Virus genome (UHGV): UHGV-1665900 | DNA: 21,906 nt | Source of the DNA: a virus | Direction: 5' to 3' (one strand) | Translations under genes and position numbers: made by a program | The notes under the pieces: generated by a model | Told to the model about the DNA's origin: nothing | What the model saw: the letters and a program-made list of their open reading frames with translations, nothing else | Databases searched by the model: none | Shown: piece by piece, positions 1 to 15,809 of the stretch | Layout of the letters: each line of letters begins with the position of its first letter | How positions within the stretch are numbered: position 1 is the stretch's first letter

Positions 1-86
1 CGCTGATGTCCGGCAGTGCTTTTGCCGTTACGCACCACCCCGTCAGTAGCTGAACAGGAGGGACAGCTGATAGAAACAGAAGCCAC
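1..86 (-). CDS. insA: IS1 InsA, N-terminal fragment (partial, continues beyond window)
   Basis: Minus-strand frame from GTG at 86..84 translates to (M)[27 protein letters not shown]..., the zinc-finger N-terminus of IS1 InsA. Not in the ORF track because it is truncated by the window edge. Confidence 0.7.
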
Positions 87-141
87 TGGAGCACCTCAAA
101 AACACCATCATACACTAAATCAGTAAGTTGGCAGCATCACC
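1..141 (-). mobile_element. IS1-family insertion sequence, left-end fragment continuing off the window start; terminal inverted repeat at about 119..141
   Basis: Reverse complement of 1..141 reads GGTGATGCTGCCAACTTACTGATTTAGTGTATGATGG...GTGGCTTCTGTTTCTATCAGCTGTCCC..., which matches the IS1 left terminal repeat and 5' region as I recall it from IS1/Tn9. Recognition is from memory, not a search. Confidence 0.8.
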
Positions 142-388
142 ACGTGAATCTCCATGATTTCTTCGCCACTGCGCGGCTTCAATCTAAGTACAATTCATTT
201 GCAGCATTGTCTGCAGCAGCAACCGCGCTATTCCAGATTATTGGTTTGTAATGCTTACCAGCCCCAAATTAATCAATACCCAGTGGTATTAGCAATGTCC
301 ATTTCAAGTACATACGTTCTTAAGACATTTGGGCACTGTCATGTCTGTCGGGGAGGAGGTTAAAATCCTCTCGTGCAAAATTTCTTAG

Positions 389-751
389 CTAGAGAATACA
401 AAGAACATCATCTGGTGTTAACACAGAGTCTTCTACGTACTCAGGGTGGTTACGTAATACATCTCTCTGATGTCTCAAGATCTGCGCTGGAATTTCTTGC
501 TCATCCACAATTTTGGCAGTATCCAGCAAAATACTGCCACACCTTATTTCCAGCGAAACAAAGCGATTCCACTCTGGACCATTAGAACACAAAAGGTCAA
601 ACAAAACCTCACCTGTAGCCTGTGAATTGCCCAGTATAACAGAAAGCCTCTTCTCGATTTCGTGAACTGAAGTCAAGGGGTTCTCGTAGCCAGTCGCCAT
701 AACGACGGCAATGAGAGCCCCTGAGACGTTAACACCTGTTATTTCAAACAA
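389..751 (-). CDS. hypothetical protein, 120 aa, second gene of the AT-rich two-gene cassette
   Basis: ORF from the track. Its start codon is TTG at 751..749 with an AAGGA Shine-Dalgarno about 8 nt upstream, embedded in the last codons of the upstream gene, whose TGA stop is at 746..744. The overlap implies translational coupling. I recognise no family. Confidence 0.5.
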   Translation of the reverse strand: MFEITGVNVSGALIAVVMATGYENPLTSVHEIEKRLSVILGNSQATGEVLFDLLCSNGPEWNRFVSLEIRCGSILLDTAKIVDEQEIPAQILRHQRDVLRNHPEYVEDSVLTPDDVLCIL

Positions 752-1814
752 TATACAAATCCTTAATAATTCCCCATGCCTGTCTGGCCTTAGTCATCAG
801 TCGTGCCATGTCAGAAACCATACGGCTTGTGTCGACAACTATCTCCATATGAAACAGGCCATGACGTTCTCTGTTAAAGAAAGTATAGGCATCATTAATG
901 GTCTTAACCTTAGCTGACGATAAATTGCATCCAAATTGTTGTTTCAGAATAAATTCACTCCCAATTTTATCAAAATAACGCCCGAAACCATCCTGCGTGA
1001 TTGGCATGCCATATCGGTACATTGTTGATTTAAGTACTCCCTCAACTGAACGTAATTCAGGATACAACAACATACAGTAATCGGGTAAATCGGGGGCGGC
1101 GAGTTTAACACACAGCCCAGAAACGAGCAATTTTTCAACATTCTTATGCAATAGTGGGTACGCATCCCCCATTTCACACTCTAGATGTGAGCGAGCAACT
1201 TCTTTCTGAACTATATACGCTTTGCCATCGTCCTGACGAATGAGAACTTTTTCCAGTCCTTGTAAATCGAGTAGCTCTGACAAGTTGAATATAAACACTC
1301 TATAACATGACAATGGACGCCCTTGTATTTGTAGTGTTCCATTTCTGTGATGCAGACTAACTGTCAACTCATCCTGAAATTCTGGCGAATGAATTTTCCA
1401 CACCGTTGTATGAGTGTTCCGTAAGTATTCGTAAAATTGTATATGTGGCTGCTCTGCTGAGAGCTGAAGTACAGATAAAACGTTCGCTTCAACGAACCCT
1501 TGTAACACCATATTTACCTGTTCAAATTCTGCAGGATTGATGGTTTCATAGAGATCATCAGCCAACTCTTTTCCAAGATTATGATTAGCTCCTGTTTGAT
1601 ACTGGACTGTAGACGTCCCTCCGTTATTATAGAAAATGTTAACAGTTGCCAAAGCTTCTCCTGGTTTAGCAAACACAACCCGAAGTCCTGCTCTTGCACC
1701 AGGCATTGGTCCAATTGAATGGACGGAATAGTTTTTATTTTCAATAAATGCCCTAGACGTAGCCTCAATAGTTGTCCGATCTAAATTTAAATTAGTGTAG
1801 TTCCTGACTGTCAT
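744..1814 (-). CDS. hypothetical protein of unknown function (356 aa from ATG at 1814; 393 aa if the unsupported upstream ATG at 1925 is used), first gene of the AT-rich cassette
   Basis: Long uninterrupted minus-strand ORF in AT-rich DNA. The ATG at 1814 has AGGG about 10 nt upstream; the ATG at 1925 has no purine-rich RBS and lies only about 23 nt inside the foreign-DNA junction. No Walker A, HNH/zinc or transmembrane features are visible by eye. Confidence 0.6.
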   Translation of the reverse strand: MTVRNYTNLNLDRTTIEATSRAFIENKNYSVHSIGPMPGARAGLRVVFAKPGEALATVNIFYNNGGTSTVQYQTGANHNLGKELADDLYETINPAEFEQVNMVLQGFVEANVLSVLQLSAEQPHIQFYEYLRNTHTTVWKIHSPEFQDELTVSLHHRNGTLQIQGRPLSCYRVFIFNLSELLDLQGLEKVLIRQDDGKAYIVQKEVARSHLECEMGDAYPLLHKNVEKLLVSGLCVKLAAPDLPDYCMLLYPELRSVEGVLKSTMYRYGMPITQDGFGRYFDKIGSEFILKQQFGCNLSSAKVKTINDAYTFFNRERHGLFHMEIVVDTSRMVSDMARLMTKARQAWGIIKDLYIV

Positions 1815-1873
1815 TTGCTTAACCCTATAAAAAAATTTAGCAAACTCTACAATATAGCCCCTCTTTAGTCTAA

Positions 1874-2236
1874 TCAGGCGCTGTATCCTGAAATCGGGTA
1901 CCGATAATATCCCTCCTGCAGCCATGTGTTGGTGTTAACAAGATACTGTGTATCAATTGAATCCGTCAGATTGCAAAAGTTGATGCCTCTTTCGCGCAGT
2001 TCCTCCACCAGCACGACAAGATGCCGCATACTGCGCCCTAACCTGTCCAGCTTCCAGACAACCAGAGTGTCACCTGCCGATAATGTCCTGAGCAGTTTTT
2101 TCAGTCCGGGCCTTTCGGACTTCGTACCGCTTATCTTGTCTTCAAAAATCAGTTCACATCCTACACAGTTCAACGCATTACGTTGTAGATCGGTGTTCTG
2201 GTCATTTGTTGATACGCGTACATAGCCAATAAGCAT
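1874..2236 (-). pseudogene. pin: Din-family serine DNA invertase (Pin/Gin/Cin/Hin-like), truncated after about residue 96 and fused to unrelated sequence; probably inactive
   Basis: From ATG at 2236 (GGGAG RBS about 9 nt upstream) the translation is [22 protein letters not shown]...DTLVVWKLDRLGRSM.HL..LV.ELRERGINF..LTDSIDT, which is a serine-recombinase catalytic domain. After LTDSIDT it continues QYLVNTNTWLQEGYYRYPISGYSA*, unlike the expected remainder of the catalytic domain and the C-terminal helix-turn-helix. The [12 protein letters not shown] extension in the ORF track is probably not translated. Confidence 0.85.
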
Positions 2237-2290
2237 GGTGGATCTCCCTGACAAAAGCAGGAATGATGCCATTTGCTCGTTATTTCTGCA

Positions 2291-2316
2291 TTTTCATAAA
2301 CGTTGGTTTGGGAGAA
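2291..2316. other. Din-type inversion crossover site, left copy (pix/gix-like)
   Basis: ttttcataaacg-tt-ggtttgggagaa has the two 12-bp half-sites around a 2-bp core that is typical of hix/gix sites. Its reverse complement ttctcccaaacc-aa-cgttt... matches 4164..4189 at 18 of its first 19 positions. Confidence 0.6.
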
Positions 2317-2637
2317 GCGGCAAAACGGAATGTGGGAACAGGGGAAAATCAGATACCTGATATGTCATCATATGCATCAGGTTCAGGCTGGCGAAAAATG
2401 CCAGATGGTTCAATTGAACAGTGGGGACGAATTAGTTTTCCTGGTGAACACGGGCCTGTATCCGCCAATGTTTCATTCCCGATTCCATTTACACAGACAC
2501 CGGGAATTGTAATTGTGTGCGATGGTGGTTTCGGGGGCGGGAATATGTGGGGGGCGACCAACTGGAGCACTACCGGCTTCATAGCTCACTGCAATTATGG
2601 TCTTGAAGGTGGTGCGTTTTTCGCTAAGGGCTGGTAA
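2303..2637 (+). CDS. alternative tail-fibre C-terminal cassette (Sv'-like), promoterless and without its own start; expressed only after inversion fuses it to the constant part of the fibre gene
   Basis: The open frame reads ...[18 protein letters not shown]...[16 protein letters not shown]...AKGW*. The crossover site encodes (N)VGLGE here and (LEN)LGLGE in the fibre gene at 4164..4189, so inversion would keep the frame. Confidence 0.55.
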
Positions 2638-3080
2638 TGATGAAATATCTGTACGTAAACAACCTGGCATATCCTTACGAACTTCAGTCTCTTTATGTTG
2701 AAAAAGGTGAATGGCCTGAAGAAAAAGGTGTTGATATAGACGAAGTAATTTTCAGGGAATATTTCTATGATACACCACCAGAAGGAAAATACAGATGTGT
2801 CGGAGAGGATGGACTGCCTGCATGGGCAGATATTCCTCCACCAACACGTGAAGAACAAATTGCATCAGCCGAAACTAAAAAGCAGCAATTGATTAACCAG
2901 GCCAACGAATACATAAACAGTAAACAATGGCCAGGTAAAGCATCAATTGGTCGTCTGAAAGGTGAGGAACTGGCGCAATATAATTTGTGGCTGGATTATC
3001 TGGACGCACTGGAACTGGTCGATACTTCCGGTGCGCCAGATATTGAATGGTCTACGCCTCCGGCAGTTCAGGCCAGATGA
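2637..3080 (+). CDS. tail fibre assembly protein, alternative copy (U'-like)
   Basis: 147-aa ORF whose ATG overlaps the stop of the Sv' cassette (TAATG). Its C-terminus ...LWLDYLDALELVDTSGAPDIEWSTPP resembles the conserved Tfa C-terminal motif and parallels the minus-strand copy (...LDYIDAVTATDTSTAPDVIWPELP). It converges on that copy. Confidence 0.8.
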   Translation: MMKYLYVNNLAYPYELQSLYVEKGEWPEEKGVDIDEVIFREYFYDTPPEGKYRCVGEDGLPAWADIPPPTREEQIASAETKKQQLINQANEYINSKQWPGKASIGRLKGEELAQYNLWLDYLDALELVDTSGAPDIEWSTPPAVQAR

Positions 3081-3645
3081 CGTCCGGCGCTGTGCTGGTA
3101 TCTGTTGCCGTCACCGCGTCAATGTAATCCAGCACAGCGTTAAGTCGGGTGTTTTCTGGCTGCGTCAGCTTCCGCCCAGCCTGTAATTTCAGTTGAATCA
3201 GACTGATGGAAGCCATTGCAGCATCAATCAGCGACTGGCGCTGTGCTTCTGCCGCTTCTACTGCGGCGCTATGCTGTGCCTCGGTATCCGTCACCCATTT
3301 CTCACCATCCCATTTATCGTATGGCGTTAACGGTGAAAGCGTGACATAACCGTCTTTGATGGCACCGATATAATCCACTGTAACAGCTGCGCCATTTTCA
3401 GTTGAGTAAACGGTCTCATTGCGATGGTCTTCTTCATGGCTCCATCCCTTACCCGTAAATACTGCCACTTTTCCCGGGATGTTTTCGCCCGGGTCAATAC
3501 CAGTGGAACAGGCGGGTATACTTACGCCAGTATTAATATATTCATCAGACCAGCCGGTATATTCATACGTTACTGCATTATAATAAAAACAACGCATATC
3601 GCCCGGCACTGTAGCCAGCCCATTTTCATCAAAAACAGGTATCAT
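3052..3645 (-). CDS. tail fibre assembly protein (U-like, currently expressed orientation)
   Basis: 197-aa ORF immediately downstream of the tail fibre gene with start/stop overlap; conserved Tfa-type C-terminus. Confidence 0.85.
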   Translation of the reverse strand: MIPVFDENGLATVPGDMRCFYYNAVTYEYTGWSDEYINTGVSIPACSTGIDPGENIPGKVAVFTGKGWSHEEDHRNETVYSTENGAAVTVDYIGAIKDGYVTLSPLTPYDKWDGEKWVTDTEAQHSAAVEAAEAQRQSLIDAAMASISLIQLKLQAGRKLTQPENTRLNAVLDYIDAVTATDTSTAPDVIWPELPEA

Positions 3646-4466
3646 TATTTAGCCCTCACCAGAAAGTTAAATGCAATATTTCGTGGACGGGTTTCTGTAT
3701 CTACATTTCCACTAATTTCACCATAACGTTTAACACTACGAGAGCTAAGAGCTCGTAGTGAGGAAGGCACCTTAAGACCGGGTTCGTCCGTTTTAACTAT
3801 TCCCCCGTCACCGTATGTAGCCAGTATTCCTGGGTTTACTCCTTCCCGTGCACTTCCTGCGGCAAGCCCGTCCCCCGTCCACAATTCCATATTGTGTGCA
3901 TGATCCATAATTGTGTGTGATTGCCCTGAAAGTAGGGTACGTCCGACATCAATCCCGCGCCCATCATCCCAGATACGAATGAAATCACCCCGTGCGTCAG
4001 GTAATGCTAGCGCCGGAAACACTTTCGCCAGCACAGGGTAATCAGTGGCAGAGAATTTCGCGCCGTTGAACTTCAAAAACACCATACTGGACCAACTGTC
4101 GATTACAGTATTTGGCATTGCGGCGGACGGCCAGAAGAACGGAACGCCAATAGCTGGAGCACCTTCTCCCAAACCAAGGTTTTCGAGAGCCGTTTTCACC
4201 GTGCCATCCGATTTGATATCGCCAAACGGATTCTTGCGGCTTAACAGCAGCGCACGAAGCGCTGTAAGCAGCTGGTCATGCCGCCCCTTCTCTAGGCTGG
4301 CACCGGATGCCTCCACAACACTGCAAAGTTCCTCCTGCAACATGTCAAAGTAGTCATCATCCAGATCGGTGGCAGGTGTGCCGGTCTGGGGGTTACCACG
4401 GGTAAAACCGTTCTTACCCGCGCCGAACTTATCCTTCTGCGCGGTTTTCGTGTCTATACGATGCAT
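3645..4466 (-). CDS. tail fibre protein (constant N-terminal part plus currently joined variable C-terminal part)
   Basis: 273-aa [49 protein letters not shown]..., an N-terminus typical of enterobacterial prophage side tail fibres. The right crossover site lies inside it at 4164..4189. Confidence 0.85.
4164..4189. other. Din-type inversion crossover site, right copy, inside the tail fibre gene
   Basis: ttctcccaaacc-aa-ggttttcgagag, in inverted orientation relative to 2291..2316. Confidence 0.6.
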
Positions 4467-4469
4467 GGA

Positions 4470-5054
4470 TTACTCCGGATATTTAAAAATTACGTAGGTA
4501 TGCGACGGGCAGAGTTTGTTAAGCACACATTCGACAACGGTGTCGCCCCAGATACGCAGCGCGGAATCACAGGGATCGCCACATGTCATCCAGGTGGTGT
4601 TTGTGGCGGCTGGCATGTTGACCTGCCAGTAATACCGCCATTCCGGCGCATTCACCGCGTCAGTACAGACCGATGAGCAGGTGAACGTGCTTTTGTCGTA
4701 TCGCGTGATGTTGGCATCTGGTCTGCCCAGGGCAGCAAGCTGTGCAAGGTAAAAATCCTCATTGATGCCGCCCGCCAGATTAACCTTCGCATCCAGCCGT
4801 TGCTGACGCTGGCGAAGGGTCTGCGTCCCTGCCGGAATACATTCATCCGGCAGGCCGCACAGACGCTCCCAGCGGTTTATCAGTTCAGTGGTGGTGCGCG
4901 GATCCAGCTCCCGCATCAGGGCATCCGCACGCTGATGAACACGGGTTAATGACGGTGCCGCACCGGCAATCGCCGGATCGCTGGCTGACCACGCCGGACC
5001 GGGGGGCAACAGTGCCGACAACAGACGGATGTAATCATCGTTTGTCACGTCCAT
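4470..5054 (-). CDS. ymfQ: baseplate protein, YmfQ / Mu gp48-like
   Basis: 194-aa [25 protein letters not shown]..., with the position and size of e14 YmfQ, immediately upstream of the fibre gene. Confidence 0.75.
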
Positions 5055-6103
5055 GAAATCGTCCCCAGAACCGCCAGTTCATTTTTTGCAATGGAGATAT
5101 TGTCTGTCGGTGCAAGCAACTGATGGCTGTATTCCCCGTTCGCACCGGAAATCGCCTCACTGATACGCGATACCTTCAGTTCTCCCTGCGGATAACCATC
5201 ACGCAGCAGGAACGAACGCAACTCCGCGGTGATGGCAGCCCGTATTTCCGGTGTGTCCGGCGTCACGCGGATATGAAAATCCACCGTATGTGCCACCGGC
5301 CTAAACACATACAAATCAGAGCCTGCCACCGGGGCCAGTGGCTCGATATGTTGTCTTGCCGCCGTTTCCGTTGATTCTTCCGGAATGGGATTAATCAGGT
5401 CACTGCTGGCAATCATCACACCGACAGTTCCCGTTCCCATCCAGTGACGGTATGTCCATGCGCGGGTAATGCCGGGCACTTCTTTAGCCCAGACAACATA
5501 GTCCCCGTCAGCCCCGCCCTGCGGCGTCCAGTAATACCGCTCAATGACGCGGGCGCGCCACGTTTCCAGCTCTTCAGTATCAAATCCGCCTGTCAGGGTG
5601 TCAGCCACACCGGAAGACGGCAGACCATTCACCGGCGTGACCAGGATTAATGCCGTACCGTCGTCAGCGTTACCGACCGCACCTGCACTTGAGCAGGCGA
5701 TCGGCACGCGCAGGACACCACCGGAGCTGGTTGCATCGTCAGTTGTCGTGTACTGCACCAGGTCATCGCGCTGAATAACACTCCCGGCGGTCACCTTCAG
5801 GCCATCGCTGACACCTTCCCAGCGCATATACCCACTGGCAGCCGTGGCTCCCTTGCGCGGACACCGTTTCATCGCAGCATGTCGCGCCAGCCAGGACTCA
5901 TCGCACAGGTCAGGCAGCATGTTCATTGCCAGATAATCGATGTAACCGTAAACCGTATGCAGCGCCGCCGCATACACCTTTGCCCGCACGTCTTCATCCA
6001 TGCGCCGGAGCGTGTCGCTGACGTCCAGCCTGGCGAATAAATCGTTACGGAGCATACTGATATTTTCTGCCAGCGTCGGGCGCTGAAATTCACTGTCCGC
6101 CAT
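5045..6103 (-). CDS. baseplate J-like protein (Mu gp47-like)
   Basis: 352-aa ORF in the conserved baseplate position between the gp46-like and YmfQ-like genes; overlapping stops and starts. Confidence 0.75.
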
Positions 6104-6518
6104 GCGTTATCGCACTCCACAGATCATCAAAAGAAATCATTACCGGTCCGTCACGACGCCAGAGAGTGATACTGTTACCCAGTTCATTAATCCCGGTGCG
6201 GCGGATATCCAGATCAATACGGGACACCACGCCGTCATCAATCATCCATTGCAGGCATTCGCGGATATACCCCCTTACCGTCTGCACCAGCTGATTGGTC
6301 AGTTTGCTGCGCTGAAGCAGCCACAGTCGGGAGCCGTAACGGTCATTCTGTACCGCAGGCCAGGTATCCCCCCACCATCCCATCGGGACGTCGGCATTGT
6401 CATCAGGTTCAGCCCGCCGCCAGGTGAACAGGGAAATCACCACGGCACGGGTCAGCGGATCCATCGGTGCGCTGGCACAGGTGCGTTTACCGTTCACCGT
6501 CAGCCACAGTTCCATCAT
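6090..6518 (-). CDS. baseplate protein, GP46 family (Mu gp46-like)
   Basis: 142-aa ORF in the conserved position between the V-like and J-like genes. Confidence 0.65.
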   Translation of the reverse strand: MMELWLTVNGKRTCASAPMDPLTRAVVISLFTWRRAEPDDNADVPMGWWGDTWPAVQNDRYGSRLWLLQRSKLTNQLVQTVRGYIRECLQWMIDDGVVSRIDLDIRRTGINELGNSITLWRRDGPVMISFDDLWSAITHGGQ

Positions 6519-7063
6519 GCCTCCATCGCTTTATCAGGTTTGTCGGTGTTACTGCCCTGACCGTTCTCTCTGTGACGATGCCCGTTATAGGCAAGCCGCA
6601 TCGCTGACATGGTGGTGCCGCTGGAGTCGCACAGGTCTTTCACCTGTCCGGTCACTTCCAGGTCCATTTCAAAACGAGCCTTAGGCGCATTGCGAAACGT
6701 GATCGTTTTACCTGCACCGTCCACCACGATCCCCGCCCGGGTCAGCGTCACGGACTGCCCCTGATCGTCATAGACAGCCACCTCACCCGTCTGCAGCCCT
6801 TTCAGGCGGTAGCGTCGGTCCGACACCGTAACAACCACCGCATGAGAACGGTCACCATCCGGAAACAACACCACCGCTTCCGCACCGCTGTTTGCCCTTG
6901 CGGTAAAACCGTAGGGTTCAAGATGTTCAACCCCGGCTTTGGGTTCACCGGCAATCAGGGACACATCCACGGTCTGACATTTCGTGGCGGCACTGATGCT
7001 TTTCACCACCGCCCGCCCAATCAGGCCGAGGAGTTGTCGCTGTATGGTTTCAATCGTCCTCAT
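6515..7063 (-). CDS. baseplate assembly protein V-like (spike, Mu gp45-like)
   Basis: 182-aa ORF in synteny after the hub gene. Confidence 0.7.
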   Translation of the reverse strand: MRTIETIQRQLLGLIGRAVVKSISAATKCQTVDVSLIAGEPKAGVEHLEPYGFTARANSGAEAVVLFPDGDRSHAVVVTVSDRRYRLKGLQTGEVAVYDDQGQSVTLTRAGIVVDGAGKTITFRNAPKARFEMDLEVTGQVKDLCDSSGTTMSAMRLAYNGHRHRENGQGSNTDKPDKAMEA

Positions 7064-8142
7064 CAGAACGGGTCCTCCTGTACTCTGGCTTTTTTCTTTT
7101 TCCGCGCGCCGGGATCTTCGGGTTCAGGCAGATAAGCATCAGGCGGGCCGACACGGATTTCCGTCAGGGTGCCGTTCTGGTCCTGAGTAAACGTGACTTC
7201 CGAGACAAGCAGTTCGGTATTATCGAAACCACAGACCGGATCAAAGACAATCACCCGCTGGTTGGGCTGCCACAGCGTACCGTTACCCTGTCGCCAGCCC
7301 TGCACCACATAGGTGGTTTCATCCGTCCGCGCCGCCCGTTGCCGGGCTTCAAAGTCAGCACGCGCAATACAGCCTGCCCCCGTGGCCTGCCCTGTCTGCC
7401 TGATATACATCGGACGGTAACGGGCAATAAATGCGTCCTCTGTGCGGGCCCGCAGCGCGGTGGTGGTGGCCTCACCGAAATCATCGTCGTTTCCGGCACG
7501 CTGCCCCGCCACCTGGTAAACAGAAAACCGCTCCCGGATACTCTTCTCCGTATCGCAGGAAAGGATGTTTTCCCCGAGTACCAGCGCAGTATGTGCCCGC
7601 GTTGAGCCAATACCGCCAATCACCAGCCTGCCGTGCGGGTCGTCGTAAGCCAGTGCCTGCTGCTGACCGAGTATTTTGTTGATCACCTCAATCACCGTTT
7701 CACCGTGATCAGGCTGGACATCAGGAATAACACCCGACGGCGCACCGTTGTTCACCACCTCAATGCCGAAAGGCGCAGCAAGCGCCTGCGCAATCTGTAC
7801 CAGCGATCGTCCGTTAAAGTGTGTCGGTTCGGCTGCACAGTCAATCAGGTCAGCGGTCAGACTGCGTCCGGCAATACCGGTGCTGACCGAACGGGCATCG
7901 TAACGAACGGGCGTCGCCTCCACCCAGCCGGTGATCACCAGCTCATCACCAATCAGCACCTCCACTTTTGAACCGTTTTTAATGCGCGGCTGAAGCGTGG
8001 TGATACCCTCATCACCCGGCCACTGGCGGGTGATCTCCACACTGAAATCCCGCGCCAGTCGTTCAACACCGGCACCGATGCGCACCGATGTCCAGCCATT
8101 CCACTCCCGGCCATTTACCCGTAGCGTGACATTGTCGTTCAT
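7063..8142 (-). CDS. baseplate hub protein (Mu P / gp44-like)
   Basis: 359-aa ORF following the DNA-circulation-like gene; order N-P-V-gp46-J as in Mu-type tails. Confidence 0.7.
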   Translation of the reverse strand: MNDNVTLRVNGREWNGWTSVRIGAGVERLARDFSVEITRQWPGDEGITTLQPRIKNGSKVEVLIGDELVITGWVEATPVRYDARSVSTGIAGRSLTADLIDCAAEPTHFNGRSLVQIAQALAAPFGIEVVNNGAPSGVIPDVQPDHGETVIEVINKILGQQQALAYDDPHGRLVIGGIGSTRAHTALVLGENILSCDTEKSIRERFSVYQVAGQRAGNDDDFGEATTTALRARTEDAFIARYRPMYIRQTGQATGAGCIARADFEARQRAARTDETTYVVQGWRQGNGTLWQPNQRVIVFDPVCGFDNTELLVSEVTFTQDQNGTLTEIRVGPPDAYLPEPEDPGARKKKKARVQEDPF

Positions 8143-9467
8143 TGCACTGGCACCTTCAGAGGGATCACCGGCACAAAGCCGGGATGCGTAATGGCATTAC
8201 GCCGGATAATGTCCGCATCACGCGCCGCGTTATCAAACCAGGTCGCCGCCAGCACCAGCGCGGGTAAAACCTCATCCGGTGTGCGCTGAATGATCCGTGC
8301 AGACTGTTCAAGGCGCGTGTTGATATCCGCATTCAGATCTGCTTTCACCCGGCGCAGTGCCAGAAACAGCGCATCACTGGTTGTACGGGACAACTCCTTA
8401 TCAATTGCCGTATTCAGTGTGTCGCGAATGTCAGTCAGTTCTTCCCACGTTGGCAGGTCAACCGTGTTTTTCACCGCCGGTGCATTGTTCAGTGCCGGAT
8501 GCGTGACGGAAGGCCAGCCAGTGCTCTGCGCAGGTGTTGTTGACTGCCCCACTGCGGCATTCTGCATCACCGCGGAAGTTGTTGGCGCAGGCAATCGGGT
8601 GACGGCATACGCCGCTTCGCTGATTGCGGTCGTACGAAGGGTACTGGCAACCTCGTTACGCTGATGCGTCGCCGTGGCGGTGGTTTTACTGTCCGTTTTC
8701 CAGACGCCGCGCGGTTGCAGATCGCTGCCGAGGCTGACACCGGAAAGCGTTTTGATCATGGTGACCAGGTCGCTGGCGTTACCATAAAGGCGTTTCCCGG
8801 TACGCCACATTTTCTGCACCTGCTCAACGAAATTTTTGCCTGACGATGGTGGCGGCAGAAGTACCGAGATATCCCCCTGCAACAGCCTGGCAGCATCCGA
8901 TACGGCAGAATCCACCACTTTCATCGCATCAGAAACATACCCAAGCATTGTGCTGGCATTACCGACGACGTCGTTCTGCACAAAATCCGCCACGCCATCG
9001 ATACTGAAACCGCTGAAGCTGTCACTGATGCAGTCATCCAGTGCAGAACAGGATGACATCAGCGTCTGCGCCGTCGCCGCACCTGATGTGGGGTAAGAGA
9101 GTTCTCCCGCTTCGACAAACTTCAGGTCAAAGCGGACAATACGCCCTTCACTCTTCGATGTGCTGACCCGAACCTCTCCATCAACACAGACTTTCAGCTC
9201 ACCGTAAGTCGGATGGACAAGCGTGCCGGGACCGGGTTTATTCAGCGCGTCAATCAGGCGATCGCGCTGGTCAAAGCAGTCATCTCCCACCACATAAGCC
9301 GTGATGGACGGGCGGAAAGTGATTTTCCCCAGGTCTTCAGTATAGGGTTTGTCGCGGTTCGGGTATTCGTGCGTTTCCACACGACGACCGGTTCCCGCAC
9401 TTTCTTCTTCAACCTTAAACGGCACACCGCGAAATGACGCGTCCTGAAGTCTGTCTTTCCACGTCAT
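8139..9467 (-). CDS. DNA circulation protein (Mu N / gp43-like)
   Basis: ORF with N-terminal motif ...WKDRLQDASFRGVPF.... Preferred start is ATG at 9467 (MTWKDRL) with GGAG about 7 nt upstream, rather than the ORF-track start at 9509. Confidence 0.7.
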   Translation of the reverse strand: MTWKDRLQDASFRGVPFKVEEESAGTGRRVETHEYPNRDKPYTEDLGKITFRPSITAYVVGDDCFDQRDRLIDALNKPGPGTLVHPTYGELKVCVDGEVRVSTSKSEGRIVRFDLKFVEAGELSYPTSGAATAQTLMSSCSALDDCISDSFSGFSIDGVADFVQNDVVGNASTMLGYVSDAMKVVDSAVSDAARLLQGDISVLLPPPSSGKNFVEQVQKMWRTGKRLYGNASDLVTMIKTLSGVSLGSDLQPRGVWKTDSKTTATATHQRNEVASTLRTTAISEAAYAVTRLPAPTTSAVMQNAAVGQSTTPAQSTGWPSVTHPALNNAPAVKNTVDLPTWEELTDIRDTLNTAIDKELSRTTSDALFLALRRVKADLNADINTRLEQSARIIQRTPDEVLPALVLAATWFDNAARDADIIRRNAITHPGFVPVIPLKVPVQ

Positions 9468-9480
9468 ATAAACTCCGTAC

Positions 9481-9506
9481 ATAAAAAATCCCACCGGAGT
9501 GGGACT
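9481..9506 (-). terminator. putative intrinsic terminator (probably partial) between the tape measure and DNA-circulation genes
   Basis: On the minus strand: GC-rich hairpin tcccac-tccg-gtggga followed directly by TTTTTTAT. The stem is only 6 bp. Confidence 0.4.
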
Positions 9507-9527
9507 CATTAACAGATTAATTTTTCA

Positions 9528-11363
9528 TTACCTGCCAAAGCGCGTATAGCCAACATCATGGCTGACATCAAAACCGCTGGATCGCGTTTCCATAACCCGC
9601 ATACCCGGAGGCGAATTCACAAAAGAGACCTTGATCTCACCATCAACTTTTGGCGCAGTAGCTTTATTAATCATGAAGGGATTCGGGCCTGTGGCATCGG
9701 AGGCGTTGTTTGACTGAGCCAGATCTACCGCCGGATAAGGTGTGTATCCCCGTGCCGGTATTCCCGTCCCATAAGCATCATAAGCACCCGCGCCCCACTG
9801 CGCAGAGTTAATGGCATCGACCGTGTCTCCGGAACTGTCGGTAAACCACTCAATAATTGGCTTCAGCTTGTCCCACATATCCTGAAACCACTTAACAACC
9901 GGCCCCCAGTTATTGATCACCATCCCCAGCGGCGACCAGGCAAAAACTTTCTTAAGGAGTTCCCAGCCAGCCTCAAAATAAGGACCAATGGTTTCCCAGA
10001 GCTTCTTGAAATAAGGTCCGACAATATCCCAGTTAGTGATAATTAATCCCGCAGCCAGGGCTATCGCCGTCGCAATCATGCCAATCGGCGTCATCGACAT
10101 GATCCTGCTGACAATGCTGATGGCACTGCCCACGCCCATCAATCCCAGTTTCAGAATCGCAAGACCGGCAGCAAGCCCGACGACGCCGCGAATAACCCGG
10201 GGATTTTCATCCGCAAACTTCGTGAATTTTTCCCCCAACTCCCCCAGCCATTGCGTGATATTTTTAGCGTCACCAGAAAATGCGCCGCCAATAGCTGCAA
10301 GACCGTTAGTTGCGGTCCCCGTCATTGCCTCCCACAGGTTGGACAGCGTACCAAGCTGTGCCTGAACACGTTTATTCAGGCTGGCCTGTTTATGCATCTT
10401 CTGCTGGATCTGATCGTAACCATCCTTTCCTTTATCGATCAGAGCATTGACCACCTGAAGGGTTTCGGCATCATCACCAAATATTGCCTTAAGTACACCG
10501 GTTCGCTTAACGTCGGTCAGTTTTCGCAGCTTTGCCAGTTGCCTGAACATGTTATCAAGACCGCCAAAACTCCCTTTGCCATCAGTAAAATCGAGCTGTA
10601 CCCCGAGTTTCTGGCGGGCCATGATTTTATTGACGTCCCTGATTTTCTTAACGCTTAATCCGGACTGGATAACTTTTCGCAGGGCATTACCTGCCGACTC
10701 CCCGTTCATCCCCATCTGATCCATCATGACACTGATGGGGGCAAGACTCTGTGCAGCCTGAAGACCGTCCTTATTCACCATCTTCAGAACAGAGCTGGTT
10801 TTAGTGAAGAATGACAGCATGTTGGTGTCGTCAACGCCCAGATAAAACGCCTTCTGAATTGTGTCGAACAGCCCCATCATGTCTTCTGAGGCCGTTCCGG
10901 TAGCATCCTGCATCTTTGCGGCAAACTCGGCAGCCGCTTCCGGTGTTTTTTTCAGTTGTACCGCAAGATAAGCTGTCGCTTTACCCACACCACCCAGAAT
11001 GTTTTCTGCCGGGATCCCCTGACGCACCAGCATCTGCATCATGTTCTGGAAATCAGCCGTTGTACCGGGTAGCTGGTTACCCAGGCCAATAGCCAGTTTA
11101 TTGATGTCCTGAAAGCTCTTTCCGACCTCACCGTTCGCATCCATCATGGCAACTTTCAGCCCGGTGGCGGCGTTTTCCTGATCGGCATAAGATTTCAGGG
11201 AAAGCGTCAGACCCGCAGCCAGTCCGCCACCAAGCGCCAGCCCACCCTGTGACGCTTCTTCCGCCTGGCGTTTAAATCCCCGGATTTTCTTTTGCATTTT
11301 CGACAGCGCGGGAGAAAGCCTGTCGACACCGGTGATCAACGCCTTAAGCTCAAATTCAGCCAT
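9528..11363 (-). CDS. tail tape measure protein
   Basis: 611-aa ORF, Ala/Gly/Leu-rich with hydrophobic stretches, directly after the chaperone frameshift pair and before the baseplate genes. Confidence 0.85.
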   Translation of the reverse strand: MAEFELKALITGVDRLSPALSKMQKKIRGFKRQAEEASQGGLALGGGLAAGLTLSLKSYADQENAATGLKVAMMDANGEVGKSFQDINKLAIGLGNQLPGTTADFQNMMQMLVRQGIPAENILGGVGKATAYLAVQLKKTPEAAAEFAAKMQDATGTASEDMMGLFDTIQKAFYLGVDDTNMLSFFTKTSSVLKMVNKDGLQAAQSLAPISVMMDQMGMNGESAGNALRKVIQSGLSVKKIRDVNKIMARQKLGVQLDFTDGKGSFGGLDNMFRQLAKLRKLTDVKRTGVLKAIFGDDAETLQVVNALIDKGKDGYDQIQQKMHKQASLNKRVQAQLGTLSNLWEAMTGTATNGLAAIGGAFSGDAKNITQWLGELGEKFTKFADENPRVIRGVVGLAAGLAILKLGLMGVGSAISIVSRIMSMTPIGMIATAIALAAGLIITNWDIVGPYFKKLWETIGPYFEAGWELLKKVFAWSPLGMVINNWGPVVKWFQDMWDKLKPIIEWFTDSSGDTVDAINSAQWGAGAYDAYGTGIPARGYTPYPAVDLAQSNNASDATGPNPFMINKATAPKVDGEIKVSFVNSPPGMRVMETRSSGFDVSHDVGYTRFGR

Positions 11364-11774
11364 GTGTGCGTTTCTCCTGCTCTATCCTGTTTGCCTGACT
11401 GACCAGCAAGGGAATTTCACTGATCGGCATATTCAGCAATTCGAAGGGATTAATGCGCCAGTAGCTGGCGCAGTCAAAGAAGCGATCAGTGAGGTATTCA
11501 GCCGTCAGGCCTGGAGGAAAAAACCAGCCACAAGCCACGCCGCTGCATTCAGGTCTGCCGGAGACATCTGGTCGACAGAGCTTTGCGGCACTTTCGCCAG
11601 CCGCACAATGTATTTCGACACCACATGCGCCAGAAGTCTGACGGACTCATCCTGATTCATCTGGTAGGGATACCCCAGCTCGCGGACATCCTTCCCGGTG
11701 GGTTCATCAAACTCCAGTACGGAGAGTGTCTCACCATGAGCGATAATCGGTTTCTTTAACTCAAGCTCTTTCAT
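11356..11774 (-). CDS. tail assembly chaperone, long form made by programmed -1 frameshift (G-T-like fusion)
   Basis: The 89-aa ORF (11505..11774) and the 60-aa -1-frame ORF (11356..11538) overlap at a T_TTT_TTC slippery heptamer (plus-strand 11517..11523). The -1 frame ends 8 nt inside the tape measure start. Confidence 0.55.
11505..11774 (-). CDS. tail assembly chaperone, short form
   Basis: 89-aa ORF between the tube and tape measure genes. Confidence 0.7.
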   Translation of the reverse strand: MKELELKKPIIAHGETLSVLEFDEPTGKDVRELGYPYQMNQDESVRLLAHVVSKYIVRLAKVPQSSVDQMSPADLNAAAWLVAGFFLQA

Positions 11775-12130
11775 TACTGGTAATCCCCTTCTTCACCGTG
11801 AAATTCAATATCGACCGTGCCTTCTTCGGCATTATGGTTCGCTTCGCCGTGCAGCCAGGCTGACGACAATACATAGACCTGACCGTTCGCCAGCTCGGCA
11901 GTGATGGTCATCTCATCAGACGAGGTGATTTTGCTCACCGGAAAATTCTTCGGCACCTTGAAGGTCCCTTTGACATAAGGCGCACGGTGAGTTTCCTTGC
12001 GGTCCACTGAACCGTCCAGGCCGATGATGTCATCATTGACCGTCCTGTTCATGGGCACCTCAATGCCGCCGGTCAGCGATAGCTGCTGACCGTCAATTTT
12101 GAAATAACAGGTTCCCCCGATACGGGCCAT
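11774..12130 (-). CDS. tail tube protein (Mu M-like)
   Basis: 118-aa ORF immediately downstream of the sheath gene, with start/stop overlap. Confidence 0.8.
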   Translation of the reverse strand: MARIGGTCYFKIDGQQLSLTGGIEVPMNRTVNDDIIGLDGSVDRKETHRAPYVKGTFKVPKNFPVSKITSSDEMTITAELANGQVYVLSSAWLHGEANHNAEEGTVDIEFHGEEGDYQ

Positions 12131-13626
12131 TATGCGGACTCCTCTGAATACTGAAGACGGAACTGGTTAACCACGGCAAAGACACGCAGCTGGTTAACAT
12201 AGTCAGGCGGGAACAGCGTGTTCAGGCGATTTGGATCGCTGGCATCACGCTCCACAACCAGGTACTGCTTAAACAGTTCGTAGTTTTCCACGATGCCCGC
12301 ACGCTCGAGCTGACGGTAGGTTGCCAGCAGTTCGCCTTTGATTACCGCCGGGGTGACAATCGCCTGACCGGGACCAAAGCGGGTACCGTCGCTGGCAAGC
12401 TTGTGACGCCCGTACTTACTGGTAATGACGGATTTCAGTTTGCGCAGTACATACGCACTGGTATGCAGCGTCTCGCTGTCGAGGTAGCTGTTATCCGCAA
12501 CCCCGTAAGCATTTTTCCTGTACGTGGTGACATCACGCTGAATGCGCAGCACCCCGCTTTCGACATACGCCGTTGCCACGCCATGAGACAGCAGGGTCTG
12601 CTGCTCGGTCATCGTGAACCGTTTCCCCTTCGGCGCAGGCAGCATACCCACCAGCTCACCGGTCTGCGTGGGACGTGCCGGATCGTTGCGGATAAACACC
12701 GCTGCGCGGGCGGTACGGCTTGCCGCCAGCTCGTCGGCAGGCGTCTGGGTCTCTTTTTCGTACCCCGCCAGGGTGATGTGCTGCTGGTTAAACTGGTCAC
12801 CTGCGTTCACCAGTTCTGACAGTGTGCCGGTCTTTGCCGTATACACATGACCATACAGCTGACGCGCATAGCTCCAGCGACCGCTGGTATCGTTCATCTC
12901 GGTCACCAGCGTGTTAACGGAGGCCGTGTCGTTGAACGGCAGACCGATATAATCAAACGGCTCATCCGCCATTGCAGCCACCGCACCGGTGAGAACCGGA
13001 GCGCCCGTTCCGGCGGTCCCCGTCGCCACGGCAATCTGTACGCCCGCTGGCAGCACTTCGCCCCCACCGAAGCCGTAGTAATTGAGGCTGACAGGAATTT
13101 CATTCCCACAAAGCCCCTTATGACGCGCGGTCAGCGTGACAACACCAGCCGAAGATGAAGCTGTAAACGGCAGAGTCGGAACGGCATTGATGGCATCTTT
13201 GATACTGCTGGCAATCGTCGTGACGTTATCGCCGTTGGTCACCGGAGCCTGCACGCGGGTACGTCCCACATAGACATTCACCGTGCCGCTTTCGGTTGCT
13301 TCCCCGGTCACCGTCAGCGTAACCGTTGCCGCCGCGCCTGTGGCTTCCGGAACGGCAATCACATACAGCTCACCAAACGGGTCGGTCTGGCGATAAGCCT
13401 CGACCATACGCGCCAGCTGACTTCCCGCACCACAAATCTGGCGTGCATAGTCTGCCGACGGCATCAGCACCAGACTGTTGGCAACAATCTCTGCACCGTT
13501 ATTGGCATGACCAATCAGCAGCGATGCTCCGCTGTCCTGTGCAGTATTCGCAGCCTGGTTATCCATTTCCGCATAAAACAGCGGAACCAGCGTATTCGAC
13601 GGAATGGTGTTAAAGCTTATCGTCAT
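12130..13626 (-). CDS. contractile tail sheath protein (Mu L-like)
   Basis: 498-aa ORF with AAGGTG RBS; size and position typical of a sheath gene. Confidence 0.85.
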   Translation of the reverse strand: MTISFNTIPSNTLVPLFYAEMDNQAANTAQDSGASLLIGHANNGAEIVANSLVLMPSADYARQICGAGSQLARMVEAYRQTDPFGELYVIAVPEATGAAATVTLTVTGEATESGTVNVYVGRTRVQAPVTNGDNVTTIASSIKDAINAVPTLPFTASSSAGVVTLTARHKGLCGNEIPVSLNYYGFGGGEVLPAGVQIAVATGTAGTGAPVLTGAVAAMADEPFDYIGLPFNDTASVNTLVTEMNDTSGRWSYARQLYGHVYTAKTGTLSELVNAGDQFNQQHITLAGYEKETQTPADELAASRTARAAVFIRNDPARPTQTGELVGMLPAPKGKRFTMTEQQTLLSHGVATAYVESGVLRIQRDVTTYRKNAYGVADNSYLDSETLHTSAYVLRKLKSVITSKYGRHKLASDGTRFGPGQAIVTPAVIKGELLATYRQLERAGIVENYELFKQYLVVERDASDPNRLNTLFPPDYVNQLRVFAVVNQFRLQYSEESA

Positions 13627-13780
13627 CGGTGTTCACCTTTTTATTCACGCGCCGGATATCACCCGCTGCTTCACGGCGCAGCCAGTAGTTGTTCTCATCA
13701 ACATTTCGCCCTTCGGCGGGCAAAAGGTCGCCGCGGGCAGGGTCAGGCACTGACCGCCCTTTAACAGGTTTCACAAACAT
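13610..13780 (-). CDS. small hypothetical protein, 56 aa, upstream of the sheath gene
   Basis: Hand-translated (below the ORF-track length cut-off): ATG at 13780 with GAGGA 6 nt upstream gives MFVKPVKGRSVPDPARGDLLPAEGRNVDENNYWLRREAAGDIRRVNKKVNTDDDKL*. It overlaps the sheath start by 17 nt. Confidence 0.4.
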   Translation of the reverse strand: MFVKPVKGRSVPDPARGDLLPAEGRNVDENNYWLRREAAGDIRRVNKKVNTDDDKL

Positions 13781-13788
13781 GATGATCC

Positions 13789-14349
13789 TCAGGAAGGAAG
13801 GGGTATTTCGGTGTGATGTTCGATATCGCCGTCAGGCCCGTTACCGGGATCGAGATAATCAACATCAATCGCCAGCGTTCGCAGTTCATCCAGACTGTTC
13901 AGGTCATCCTGCTGGCGGGTATCGTCTTCGGTCAGCTCGCTGATGACCGAAAAATCGAACTGATAAATCAGCTCATGACGATTCAGATCCAGCAGCGTGC
14001 CGCCGTCATAGGTAATCGGGTTACCGCACGCTTCCGGGTTCCAGCCCAGCAGAGCCTTAAAGAGCATCTGCCGGACATCGTCCACCACATCATACGAGGC
14101 AAACTGACCGCGCTCATCACGCCAGTTACTCAGTATGACAACCACGGAGAAGCCCTCTTTCAGCTCCTGCCAGTAGTCGGTCTGGCTTTTGTTTTCTCCC
14201 GGAGAGTCATCACCCGGTACCACATATGCCGCCGGGAGTTTCAGCTTTCCGACCTCCGGCAGATTTTTGAACTGGGCCGCGCCTGCAACCCGGTTTTCAA
14301 AATACGGACAGCGGGCACGCAGTGCAGCAATAACAGGCGTCAGTTTCAT
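13789..14349 (-). CDS. tail-proximal virion protein (Mu gp37-like / tail completion)
   Basis: 186-aa acidic ORF between the head-tail joining genes and the sheath gene; assignment is by position. Confidence 0.55.
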   Translation of the reverse strand: MKLTPVIAALRARCPYFENRVAGAAQFKNLPEVGKLKLPAAYVVPGDDSPGENKSQTDYWQELKEGFSVVVILSNWRDERGQFASYDVVDDVRQMLFKALLGWNPEACGNPITYDGGTLLDLNRHELIYQFDFSVISELTEDDTRQQDDLNSLDELRTLAIDVDYLDPGNGPDGDIEHHTEIPLPS

Positions 14350-14852
14350 CTGTGTCGTCGCTCCGGCTTCAGTGATTTACGCAATTCCCGCGCCAGAAAA
14401 TAGCGTGTCCAACTGCGGTTCTTTTCAAGCGTTTCCACCATGAAGTTATTACGTGGAGCCAGTCGCCAGCCGCTGCCACCGGATGCACCACGATGATGGC
14501 TGCGACGACGCTTTGCCCCTCGCCTCACGCCATAGAACAAAAAAGCCGGATAAAAATCACCGGTGATACGGCGGTTTCCCTCTCCATTACGCTGGTTAGG
14601 GGCTATACGTGCCATAAAACCAGGGCGATGTTTACTGGCTCTGGGTACCATGTAACCAATCGAACGAGCCAGGCGTCCGGTCTGATAACCGGGGTTTTCA
14701 CCCGGTGCCGACCGCGCACGGCGCATCACCAGCCGACGGGCATCACGCATATGACGCTGACCAATCGTGACAAACGCCCGCCGGACACGGGCGCGGTTAA
14801 AGCGCATCTCCGCGGGCTGCTGAAAATCAACGTGCAAAAAGGAAGTCGTCAT
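14346..14852 (-). CDS. virion morphogenesis / head-tail joining protein, very Arg-rich
   Basis: 168-aa strongly basic ORF in the head-tail joining block; assignment is by position. Confidence 0.5.
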   Translation of the reverse strand: MTTSFLHVDFQQPAEMRFNRARVRRAFVTIGQRHMRDARRLVMRRARSAPGENPGYQTGRLARSIGYMVPRASKHRPGFMARIAPNQRNGEGNRRITGDFYPAFLFYGVRRGAKRRRSHHRGASGGSGWRLAPRNNFMVETLEKNRSWTRYFLARELRKSLKPERRHR

Positions 14853-15237
14853 TGTTGCCTCCGTGACTCTGCCTACATTCGCCCAGCTCCGTACACTCCA
14901 GCAGCAGAAAGCGCCGCGCCCCGTTCAGATCGCGCTGACGTTTCACCCGGTACACACTGTCACCGCAGACCACCTCATAATCAGCGGTGATCCCCCGGCG
15001 GTAACGAATGGTGATGTAATGGGTGATGGCGTCCCCGGTCTGCGCGGTTTCCTGCCAGGTGGTGGCACTGGTCTGGATAACCTTCGCCCATGTCCGGAAC
15101 GTAACCGGGTATTGAGGCTCCACGCCAAAGTTATCCACGGGCATATCCACCCGCAGGCGGATCAGGACGCGTTTATTCAGTTCACCGGGGTCCGGCAGAA
15201 TGTAGGTTGCGCTGGTCTGCGCCTGACGAATTTTCAT
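14827..15237 (-). CDS. head-tail adaptor / head closure protein
   Basis: 136-aa ORF directly after the gp6-like connector; order as in HK97-type head modules. Confidence 0.55.
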   Translation of the reverse strand: MKIRQAQTSATYILPDPGELNKRVLIRLRVDMPVDNFGVEPQYPVTFRTWAKVIQTSATTWQETAQTGDAITHYITIRYRRGITADYEVVCGDSVYRVKRQRDLNGARRFLLLECTELGECRQSHGGNNDDFLFAR

Positions 15238-15557: not shown

Positions 15558-15559
15558 AC

Positions 15560-15760: not shown

Positions 15761-15782
15761 GATTCTTCACCCGTCAGAACAG

Positions 15783-15802: not shown

Positions 15803-15809
15803 TGAGTGA

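Follow-up and report, generated by a model that had tools for sequence, protein, structure and literature searches.

A probable e14-type tail-fibre inversion segment beside a truncated pinE gene in a prophage genome

Fibre gene, alternative tips and crossover sites

The window (the whole stretch of DNA analysed, 21.9 kb in length) carries on its minus strand, at 3645-4466, a fibre gene encoding a protein of 273 aa: a constant part of 101 aa (4164..4466), ending in LGLGE, is followed by a tip of 172 aa (aa 102-273; 3645..4163). The constant part and the first two residues of the tip (aa 1-103) share 99% identity with the short tail fibre found in Shigella phages SfI, SfII and SfIV. We characterized the tip as Collar/T4 gp37-like. 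It contains an HxH motif (MDHAHN); its match to Pfam Collar is weak (E 0.0027, below the gathering cutoff); it also matches the tip of T4 gp37 (PDB 2xgf, E 3e-5) and is 59-64% identical to the side tail fibres of phages mEp043, mEp213 and vB_EcoM-683R1. The next gene on this strand (3052..3645) encodes the Tfa chaperone of this tip, 197 aa in length (Pfam Caudo_TAP, E 1.2e-27; phrog_105).

A second set of genes is found on the plus strand. An ORF of 124 aa (2263..2637), with its own ATG at 2263, consists of an 18-aa leader running through GLGE and a tip of 106 aa (2317-2634); RefSeq relatives are annotated as 'gp53-like domain-containing protein'. This tip matches Pfam Gp53-like_C (E 1.3e-7), the short tail fibre gp92 (PDB 9zd7, E 7e-7) and the fibre feet of R-type pyocins (R2 pyocin fibre). 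It is followed by an alternative Tfa gene of 147 aa (2637..3080, plus strand; Pfam Caudo_TAP, E 6e-32; phrog_188), located where the initial annotation had placed it. The two tfa genes are convergent and overlap by 29 nt. In both cassettes a TAATG overlap joins a stop to a start: the fibre stop to the start of Tfa197, and the stop of the 124-aa ORF to the start of Tfa147. Judged by these Pfam and PDB matches, both tips, whose comparison with known receptor-binding domains had been proposed, can be recognised as receptor-binding modules, and they may differ in receptor or host specificity. A single orientation is seen in the contig, with the Collar/gp37-like tip and Tfa197 in the expressed position and the Gp53-like tip and Tfa147 silent. 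A scan for a promoter of the silent cassette and for terminators in the segment gave four promoter-like and two terminator-like matches, no more than in shuffled sequences.

The two gene sets lie in a predicted invertible segment of 1875 bp, counted from core to core (2303..4177) and delimited by two 26-bp sites in inverted orientation. The left, pinE-proximal site (2291..2316, minus strand; core at 2303-2304) lies within the 124-aa ORF and reads TTCTCCCAAACC-AA-CGTTTATGAAAA, or TTTTCATAAACG-TT-GGTTTGGGAGAA on the plus strand; the right site (4164..4189, plus strand; core at 4176-4177) lies within the fibre gene and reads TTCTCCCAAACC-AA-GGTTTTCGAGAG. Each is made of two imperfect 12-bp half-sites around the identical 2-bp core, the architecture of Din-family sites. 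The AA core is the same in both, and the sites agree at 21 of 26 positions, including 18 of the first 19. In a repeat search the top inverted repeat of the region was the pair 2298-2317 / 4163-4182 (20 nt, 95%). A search with the 19-mer, allowing up to three mismatches, returned exactly two occurrences in the 21.9-kb window, with none in 100 shuffles; the two sites reported by the initial annotation are real and are the sole copies in the window.

A multi-inversion arrangement, shufflon-like or Min-like, was considered and rejected, as only two sites were found with the 19-mer (up to three mismatches) or with the looser core pattern AAACCNNGGTTT (up to one mismatch), which gave no further site within the segment. 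One unrelated match was returned at 14686.

The constant part of the fibre lies outside the segment except for its last residues, which are encoded by the right site; the fibre gene reads ...LENLGLGE there, as the initial annotation had said. The same annotation had the cassette at the left site encode LGLGE as well; its actual reading is N-V-G-L-G-E, and LGLGE is restored only upon inversion. The proposed plus-strand cassette does exist, as an ORF with its own start codon and not as a bare fragment. The proposed exchange of tips also stood, with sizes of 172 and 106 aa in place of about 175 and about 111 aa.

Inversion product and the two orientations in public assemblies

In-silico inversion at the 2-bp core gave an uninterrupted fibre ORF of 207 aa, in which aa 1-101 of the constant part continue in frame, with no frameshift, into the 106-aa Gp53-like tip. 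The 273-aa and 207-aa ORFs have aa 1-101 in common, and a Caudo_TAP gene lies downstream of each tip. Inversion of this exact interval reproduces real genomes: the inverted construct is present with 100% identity over 2685 nt in eight complete E. coli genomes (CX04, CX07, CX21, 0H15, 0H18, 0H24, D2 and CAVP776), while siblings CX05, CX15, 0H23, 0H25 and 0H26 have the orientation of the window at the same chromosomal coordinates as their inverted relatives. The identical allele, with both tips and both Tfa genes, is found at 100% over 2016-4700 in either orientation in complete E. coli genomes including CX04-CX21, 0H15-0H26, D2 and JB2. The unbroken 207-aa ORF and the inverted arrangement in natural genomes support the proposal that inversion swaps a tip along with its Tfa. 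The orientation heterogeneity that the initial annotation suggested looking for is seen in public assemblies, where sibling strains have either orientation.

A contig of the isolate assembly GCA_003291935.1 matches the inverted construct at 8233 of 8236 nt and shares the truncated pin, rnlAB and IS1 of the window. Its junctions are exactly those predicted from exchange at the core, with the asymmetric C/G position outside the core staying in place; none of the mismatches is near the junctions. Two Logan unitigs stop precisely at 2317, which is the last base common to both orientations, as is expected from a k=31 graph when reads hold both continuations. Two other contigs span the left site in the orientation of the window.

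Relation to the P segment of K-12 e14 and to other inversion systems

The P segment was reportedly first described by Plasterk and van de Putte in 1985, and Mehta et al. are reported to have worked in 2004 on that of e14, a cryptic prophage of E. coli K-12. In Mu (G/Gin), P1 (C/Cin) and Salmonella (H/Hin), which belong to the same mechanism class, a serine DNA invertase acts on two 26-bp sites with 12-bp half-sites and a 2-bp core. Mu and P1 resemble the window in that the constant N-terminus of the fibre is outside the segment and alternative C-termini with Tfa (U/U') genes are inside; in the window, too, the constant part is in frame with either tip, each tip having its own Tfa gene. The Mu fibre protein S (PDB 5yvq) has weak similarity to the window's constant part (E 0.05-0.25) and is about 500 aa in length, compared with 207 or 273 aa for the window fibre. 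The Salmonella system differs in that Hin controls a promoter, unlike the coding fusion of the window. The site sequences of the window are of the e14 type, not gix, cix or hix.

For comparison with K-12 (stfP-tfaP / tfaE-stfE, with pinE), we took the e14 sites directly from NC_000913.3. The left site is identical at 26 of 26 positions to the pinE-proximal site (position 6606 of the K-12 extract), and the right site is likewise identical to the site within stfP (position 4804). The term 'e14 P-segment design', used in the initial annotation, is therefore literally correct. The P-segment repeats given for K-12 by Kirigo et al. 2025 (TTGGTTTGGGAGAAGG / CCTTCTCCCAAACCAA; PMC12529663) are contained in the 26-bp sites of the window.

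Beyond the crossover sequences, the window has the StfP constant region (K-12 StfP aa 1-103 are 99% identical to the window fibre) and the neighbouring ymfQ (97% identical at the level of YmfQ) and baseplate J genes of the e14 locus. It also has the same gene order, the same 29-nt tfa overlap, a pin gene divergent beside the silent cassette, and one Gp53-like_C tip and one Collar tip. The cargo is of the same domain types as the K-12 pairs StfP tip/TfaP and StfE tip/TfaE and consists of diverged alleles: the Collar-type tip shares 42% identity with that of K-12 StfE, the Gp53-like tips have no BLAST-detectable similarity, Tfa197 is 63% identical to TfaE, and Tfa147 is 58% identical to the C-terminal part of TfaP. 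At the sequence level, the cargo of the window is an allelic variant of the K-12 cargo. The segment is 1875 bp long in the window versus 1797 bp in K-12.

Two further differences concern the surroundings. While K-12 e14 is a remnant, the window prophage has a full late operon, complete from terminase to baseplate, with baseplate genes of the Mu-gp45/46/47/48 type; this late region is about 97.6% identical to e14-family prophages, and a relative in strain JB2 is situated at the e14 position, with the icd fragment, mcrA and pinE. Also unlike K-12 e14, the window has rnlAB and IS1 in place of the 3' half of pinE and mcrA.

We characterized the locus as the P segment of an e14/SfV-family prophage, operating as a Din-family (Gin/Hin/Cin/Pin) site-specific tail-fibre inversion switch, and assign to this whole account a probability of about 0.88. 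In the predicted mechanism, the constant part of the fibre (aa 1-101) ends in the right 26-bp site, and the 1875-bp segment supplies two back-to-back cassettes, each a receptor-binding tip with its own Tfa chaperone. Bound at each site, a dimer of a serine invertase would cut the AA/TT core and turn the strands through 180 degrees, which would place the other tip and its Tfa, fused in frame, after the constant part and downstream of the late promoter.

Truncated pinE and the ways in which the segment may be inverted

The initial annotation recognized an e14-type switch correctly and missed that the adjacent invertase gene is truncated. Only codons 1-96 of the 184 codons of pinE remain (1948..2236, minus strand), and the ORF continues out of homology to 1874. 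We located the breakpoint from the protein alignment and BLAST coordinates: DNA homology to intact pinE ends at about 1946-1949, and the truncated Pin is 96.9% identical to K-12 PinE over aa 1-96 and unrelated beyond. Pfam Resolvase covers residues 3-97 (profile positions 2-106 of 145), with no HTH domain. Of the protein, the region of the catalytic Ser10 is retained; helix E and the DNA-binding domain at the C-terminus are missing. The remainder of the gene has been replaced by rnlA-rnlB (toxin-antitoxin) and an IS1 end. The full-length adjacent serine invertase of Din-family systems (about 180-190 aa) is thus missing, with the cis-acting substrate complete, and no other resolvase-family ORF was found in the 21.9-kb window. 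As the truncated Pin is without the dimerisation helix and the DNA-binding domain, it is presumably unable to catalyse inversion. With pinE cut after codon 96 the switch would not be drivable in cis; only an invertase encoded elsewhere could operate it.

The complete E. coli genomes with the identical allele differ from the window in that their pinE is full-length (184 aa) and precedes mcrA or a GIY-YIG gene. The allele joined to truncated pin and rnlAB was seen in none of 5,426 complete genomes, where no locus spans at least 80% of window positions 1-4700; a search with the truncated Pin protein detected the arrangement of the window in draft and metagenome assemblies.

Among the latter, the near-identical GCA_003291935.1 contig, which combines this truncated pin and rnlAB with the opposite orientation, suggests that, after pinE was truncated, inversion of the segment took place in trans. 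Inversion of the e14 P segment in trans by PinQ is documented experimentally (PMC12529663). We regard it as about an even bet that, with the prophage's own invertase destroyed by rnlAB, the tips are still switched in trans by the invertase of another prophage. If so, host-range switching, or a surface defence of the StfE2 kind, would hinge on cross-talk between prophages.

Alternatively, the segment could be a frozen relic that no longer inverts in its host, leaving the fibre permanently Collar/gp37-like. The loss of all but codons 1-96 of pinE and the lack of another resolvase-family ORF in the window fit with this, as do the two contigs that cross the left site in the window's orientation. 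A K-12 pinE mutant was reported by Kirigo et al. to have its P segment locked in one orientation (PMC12529663), so native levels of other invertases may be too low. Against it stand the GCA_003291935.1 contig, which shares truncated pin, rnlAB and IS1 with the window and has the opposite orientation at three mismatches in 8236 nt, and the two unitigs that break exactly at the branch point 2317. Both sites, moreover, are still identical to functional K-12 sites at 26 of 26 positions, and PinQ is able to flip a P-type segment in trans (PMC12529663). We consider a frozen segment rather unlikely.

Another explanation is that the segment serves the host: the leader-plus-tip ORF near pin (2263-2637 or its inverted counterpart) would block adsorption of other phages, inversion being a defence switch. 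There is a precedent in K-12 e14: once the P segment has inverted, StfE2, in which the stfP tip is joined to the start of stfE, is reported to prevent T2 from adsorbing (Kirigo et al. 2025; PMC12529663). The equivalent ORF of the window has its own ATG and an 18-aa leader resembling K-12 StfE (68% over 25 aa), and the neighbouring cargo, rnlAB, is a defence cassette. However, unlike in K-12 e14, the late operon is complete from terminase to baseplate, and virions therefore probably still make use of the fibre; the tips are strongly diverged from those of K-12, and scanning against shuffles gave no promoter-like signal above chance upstream of 2263. A role of this kind appears improbable to us.

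The module of rnlAB and truncated pin, with identical RnlA, is common at prophage ends of several types and, in many lambdoid prophages and remnants, adjoins the tail-fibre/Tfa genes; it may have spread by homologous recombination within pin. One could imagine that such recombination in the 5' part of pin grafted the module onto two oppositely oriented prophages, with no later inversion. In line with this, the identity of the window is 100% with one relative as far as position 2133 and with CX15 from position 2016 onwards, which fits a recombination joint within 2016-2133. Such a history would require two independent grafts with identical sequence on both sides, which makes a single inversion more parsimonious, and the three differences in 8236 nt between the window and the GCA_003291935.1 contig are not near the junctions. 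We consider two grafts quite improbable. That the sites are an inverted repeat arisen by chance and take no part in site-specific recombination, a reading for which only the shortness of the repeat (20 nt) speaks, is refuted by their identity to experimentally defined K-12 sites and by the natural occurrence of the exact inverted product, along with the absence of matches in shuffles, and has practically no probability left.

Earlier work had described the P-segment system (Plasterk and van de Putte 1985; Kirigo 2025), and the main value of the present analysis is correct annotation. As the locus is an e14-type P segment, the 273-aa 'hypothetical protein' and the 124-aa 'gp53-like' ORF are alternative ends of one tail-fibre gene, and assemblies of the region may legitimately differ in orientation. 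The locus also offers a small useful case suggesting that the substrate of a Din-family switch can outlast the linked enzyme and be served by invertases of other prophages; such a reading of an enzyme-less switch agrees with PinQ flipping the e14 segment in trans (PMC12529663) and opens no new question.

A candidate Fis-dependent recombinational enhancer (2152..2214) is predicted within the retained 5' part of pin, from two Fis-like 15-mers whose midpoints, 2159 and 2207, show the expected spacing of 48 bp. The nearer midpoint is 96.5 bp from the crossover core, which fits the hixL-enhancer distance of roughly 100 bp (PMC3798978); the indication is weak, as the motif is degenerate and, in its crude form, has a frequency of about 20 per kb.

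Crossover sites and alternative fibre tips

The invertible segment (1875 bp, core to core 2303-4177) lies between two 26-bp crossover sites in inverted orientation. On the plus strand the left site, at 2291-2316, reads TTTTCATAAACG-TT-GGTTTGGGAGAA and the right site, at 4164-4189, reads TTCTCCCAAACC-AA-GGTTTTCGAGAG; compared on opposite strands, the two have the central AA dinucleotide in common and are equal at 21 of 26 positions. The site pair, with its match at 18 of the first 19 positions, had been pointed out in the initial annotation and was confirmed by the sequence, by a repeat search that ranked it first in length among the inverted repeats of the region (20 nt, 95%, arms 2298-2317 / 4163-4182), and by counts of the 19-mer with up to three mismatches (exactly two occurrences in the window, 0 in 100 dinucleotide-preserving shuffles). 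A scan with a looser core pattern found no third crossover site in or near the segment. An 18-nt inverted repeat inside the segment (2990-3007 / 3116-3133, 83% complementary) was rejected as a recombination site; it reflects the conserved C-terminal motif (WLDYLDA / VLDYIDA) of the convergent Tfa genes.

The fibre gene (3645-4466, minus strand) encodes 273 aa, of which the first 103 share 99% identity with K-12 StfP and likewise with the 'short tail fibre' of Shigella phages SfI, SfII and SfIV. Its present tip (residues 102-273) matches the receptor-binding tip of T4 gp37, HxH motif included (PDB 2xgf, E 3e-5), with a sub-threshold match to Pfam Collar. The silent cassette (ORF 2263-2637, plus strand) consists of an 18-aa leader running through GLGE and an alternative tip belonging to Gp53-like_C, which also matches gp92 (PDB 9zd7) and R-type pyocin fibre feet. 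Two alternative tips had been correctly proposed, with lengths now revised from about 175 and 111 aa to 172 and 106 aa; the LGLGE assigned to the left junction is NVGLGE in the silent cassette. Each tip is followed by a Tfa chaperone gene whose start overlaps the stop of the preceding ORF (TAATG), encoding 197 aa at 3052-3645 (minus strand) and 147 aa at 2637-3080 (plus strand); the two Tfa genes are convergent and overlap by 29 nt.

The genes upstream of the fibre are YmfQ/Mu gp48, baseplate J/gp47, gp46, gp45 and gpP-like. Beyond them the operon extends to the terminase and to an HNH gene. The stretch 4470-21801 (HNH endonuclease, small and large terminase, portal, protease, major capsid, sheath, tube, tape measure and Mu-type baseplate) is apparently the whole late operon of a myovirus-like prophage of e14/SfV type. 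Prophages in roughly 700 complete E. coli genomes share about 97.6% identity with it.

Identity with the e14 P segment and its two orientations

We compared the locus with the cryptic prophage e14 of K-12, which carries the P segment (stfP-tfaP / tfaE-stfE) and the invertase gene pinE. The MG1655 e14 sites, TTCTCCCAAACCAACGTTTATGAAAA adjoining pinE and TTCTCCCAAACCAAGGTTTTCGAGAG within stfP, are identical to those of the window at 26/26 positions, and both contain the 16-nt repeats given for the 1797-bp P segment by Kirigo et al. (PMC12529663). Furthermore, in strain JB2 the same allele occupies the e14 position (icd fragment, mcrA, pinE). The locus is therefore the e14 P segment itself, beyond the mere likeness of design to Mu G and e14 P that had been proposed and is borne out here. 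The cargo, judged by sequence, is allelic relative to K-12. The K-12 genes tfaP and tfaE converge with the same 29-nt overlap, and identity between the Tfa proteins is 58-63%. The collar-type tip shares 42% identity with that of StfE, while the Gp53-like tip has no BLAST similarity to the StfP tip, yet both match the same Pfam family. In K-12 terms, the window has the StfP N-terminus joined to an StfE-type tip.

A frameshifted or interrupted fibre gene after inversion had been named as the outcome that would speak against the proposal. Reverse-complementing 2303-4177 produced a 207-aa fibre ORF, open throughout, which has residues 1-101 in common with the present fibre. We searched complete E. 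coli chromosomes with this inverted construct (2685 nt, window 2016-4700 with the segment flipped) and found it at 100% and in one piece in eight of them: D2, CX21, CX07, CX04, 0H24, 0H18, 0H15 and CAVP776. The native arrangement matched at 100% in six other genomes (CX15, CX05, 0H26, 0H25, 0H23 and LR536430). With the query of opposite orientation, each genome gave only an internal match of 1885 nt, located on the other strand. Within the CX and 0H series, members are almost equal in genome size and have the locus at the same coordinates in opposite orientations, e.g. CX15 at 3871672-3874356 (native) and CX07 at 3871671-3874355 (inverted). All of these genomes have full-length pinE. Both the observation and the interpretation of the initial annotation were correct: this is a Din-family fibre switch of textbook type and specifically the e14 P segment. 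It has been described before, and hundreds of genomes already carry piecemeal annotations of it.

An 18,368-nt linear record deposited as CX15 'plasmid unnamed5' (NZ_CP081745.1; locus at 8001-10684) duplicates CX15 chromosomal DNA around the prophage end, with the segment opposite to that in the chromosome. It is probably no plasmid but an assembly leftover from an inverted sub-population.

Truncated invertase and proposed inversion in trans

What is new here, and of modest interest, is a truncated invertase together with circumstantial evidence for inversion in trans. The pin ORF adjoining the left site (1874-2236, minus strand) is PinE-like only in its first 96 residues (93/96 match) and unrelated thereafter; DNA homology to intact pinE stops at about 1946-1949. 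Pfam recognised only the first two thirds of the Resolvase catalytic domain, from the N-terminus, and gave no HTH match. Serine invertases cannot work without helix E and the C-terminal DNA-binding domain; the truncated pin is therefore predicted to be dead and the switch would be undrivable in cis. What is left of pin includes its 5' 290 nt. Hin and Gin systems have a Fis-dependent enhancer in the 5' region of the invertase gene, at a distance of about 100 bp from the proximal site (PMC3798978); a crude scan, with a motif too frequent to weigh as evidence, placed two Fis-like 15-mers in the 5' part of pin, 48 bp apart, the nearer 96.5 bp from the core.

An exact look-up of the truncated Pin protein identified the window as contig k141_1033 of the metagenome assembly ENA ERZ27272196. 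It also yielded a 98-kb contig of an isolate assembly (GCA_003291935.1) in which truncated pin, rnlAB and IS1 end are the same as in the window. Its called genes stand in reverse order relative to the window, with the 207-aa fibre and the 147-aa Tfa first; it matches the inverted construct at 8233/8236 positions, and the prediction holds exactly at both junctions. A single asymmetric position adjoins the core on its outer side (C at 2302, G at 4178) and is unmoved, which confines the exchange to the shared TTGGTTTGGGAGAAG, consistent with exchange at the core. Two Logan unitigs (SRR22388991 and ERR2010953) span from 31 nt inside the IS1 end (window 112) to exactly 2317, which borders the left site on its inner side and is the last base common to both orientations. 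A k=31 graph breaks at the last shared base when both continuations occur in the reads, which suggests two continuations (orientations or alleles) in these read sets despite the truncated pin.

The most parsimonious reading of these sequences is that the segment inverted after truncation of pinE, by an invertase supplied in trans. It was shown experimentally that PinQ of prophage Qin flips the e14 P segment in trans; a caveat is that a pinE mutant was reported as locked in the same paper (PMC12529663). Another is that the module of rnlAB and truncated pin, which is often found where lambdoid prophages and remnants end, may spread through recombination inside pin. A third is that the window itself matches one lineage up to 2133 and another from 2016, both at 100%.

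The rnlAB cassette and a possible recombination joint

In place of the 3' half of pinE (pin junction at about 1948) the window carries the rnlA-rnlB toxin-antitoxin cassette (389-1814) of RNase LS, an anti-phage system: rnlA at 744-1814 (356 aa) and rnlB at 389-751 (120 aa), both on the minus strand. Downstream of pinE there appears to be a hot spot for cargo: K-12 and JB2 have mcrA there, CX15 a LEM-3-like GIY-YIG gene and the window rnlAB. An identical RnlA occurs in 1378 blocks of the assembly collection, and in most of 10 places among the matches listed it directly follows tail-fibre and tfa genes in lambdoid prophages. The window opens inside an IS1 end (1-142), with an IS1B-family transposase in the matching genome L002; this repeated element is probably the reason for the end of the metagenome contig at that point.

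Window 1-2133 is 100% identical to L002, with rnlAB-linked pin remnants, and the window from 2016 onward is 100% identical to CX15, with intact-pinE prophages; the two parts occur together in no complete E. coli genome. Their overlap of 118 nt (2016-2133) could be a homologous-recombination joint, or the window could have the ancestral arrangement behind the remnants.

The same truncated pin and rnlAB also stand beside other invertible-looking fibre segments in lambdoid prophages and prophage remnants, at 8808-11850 of L003 (E. coli strain 410) and 2420-6549 of L015. There a long Stf ending in a Gp53-like tip is accompanied by a Tfa and by a second Gp53-like cassette that is reversed. Over the pin 5' region and left-site stretch, identity between L003 and the window is only about 93%.
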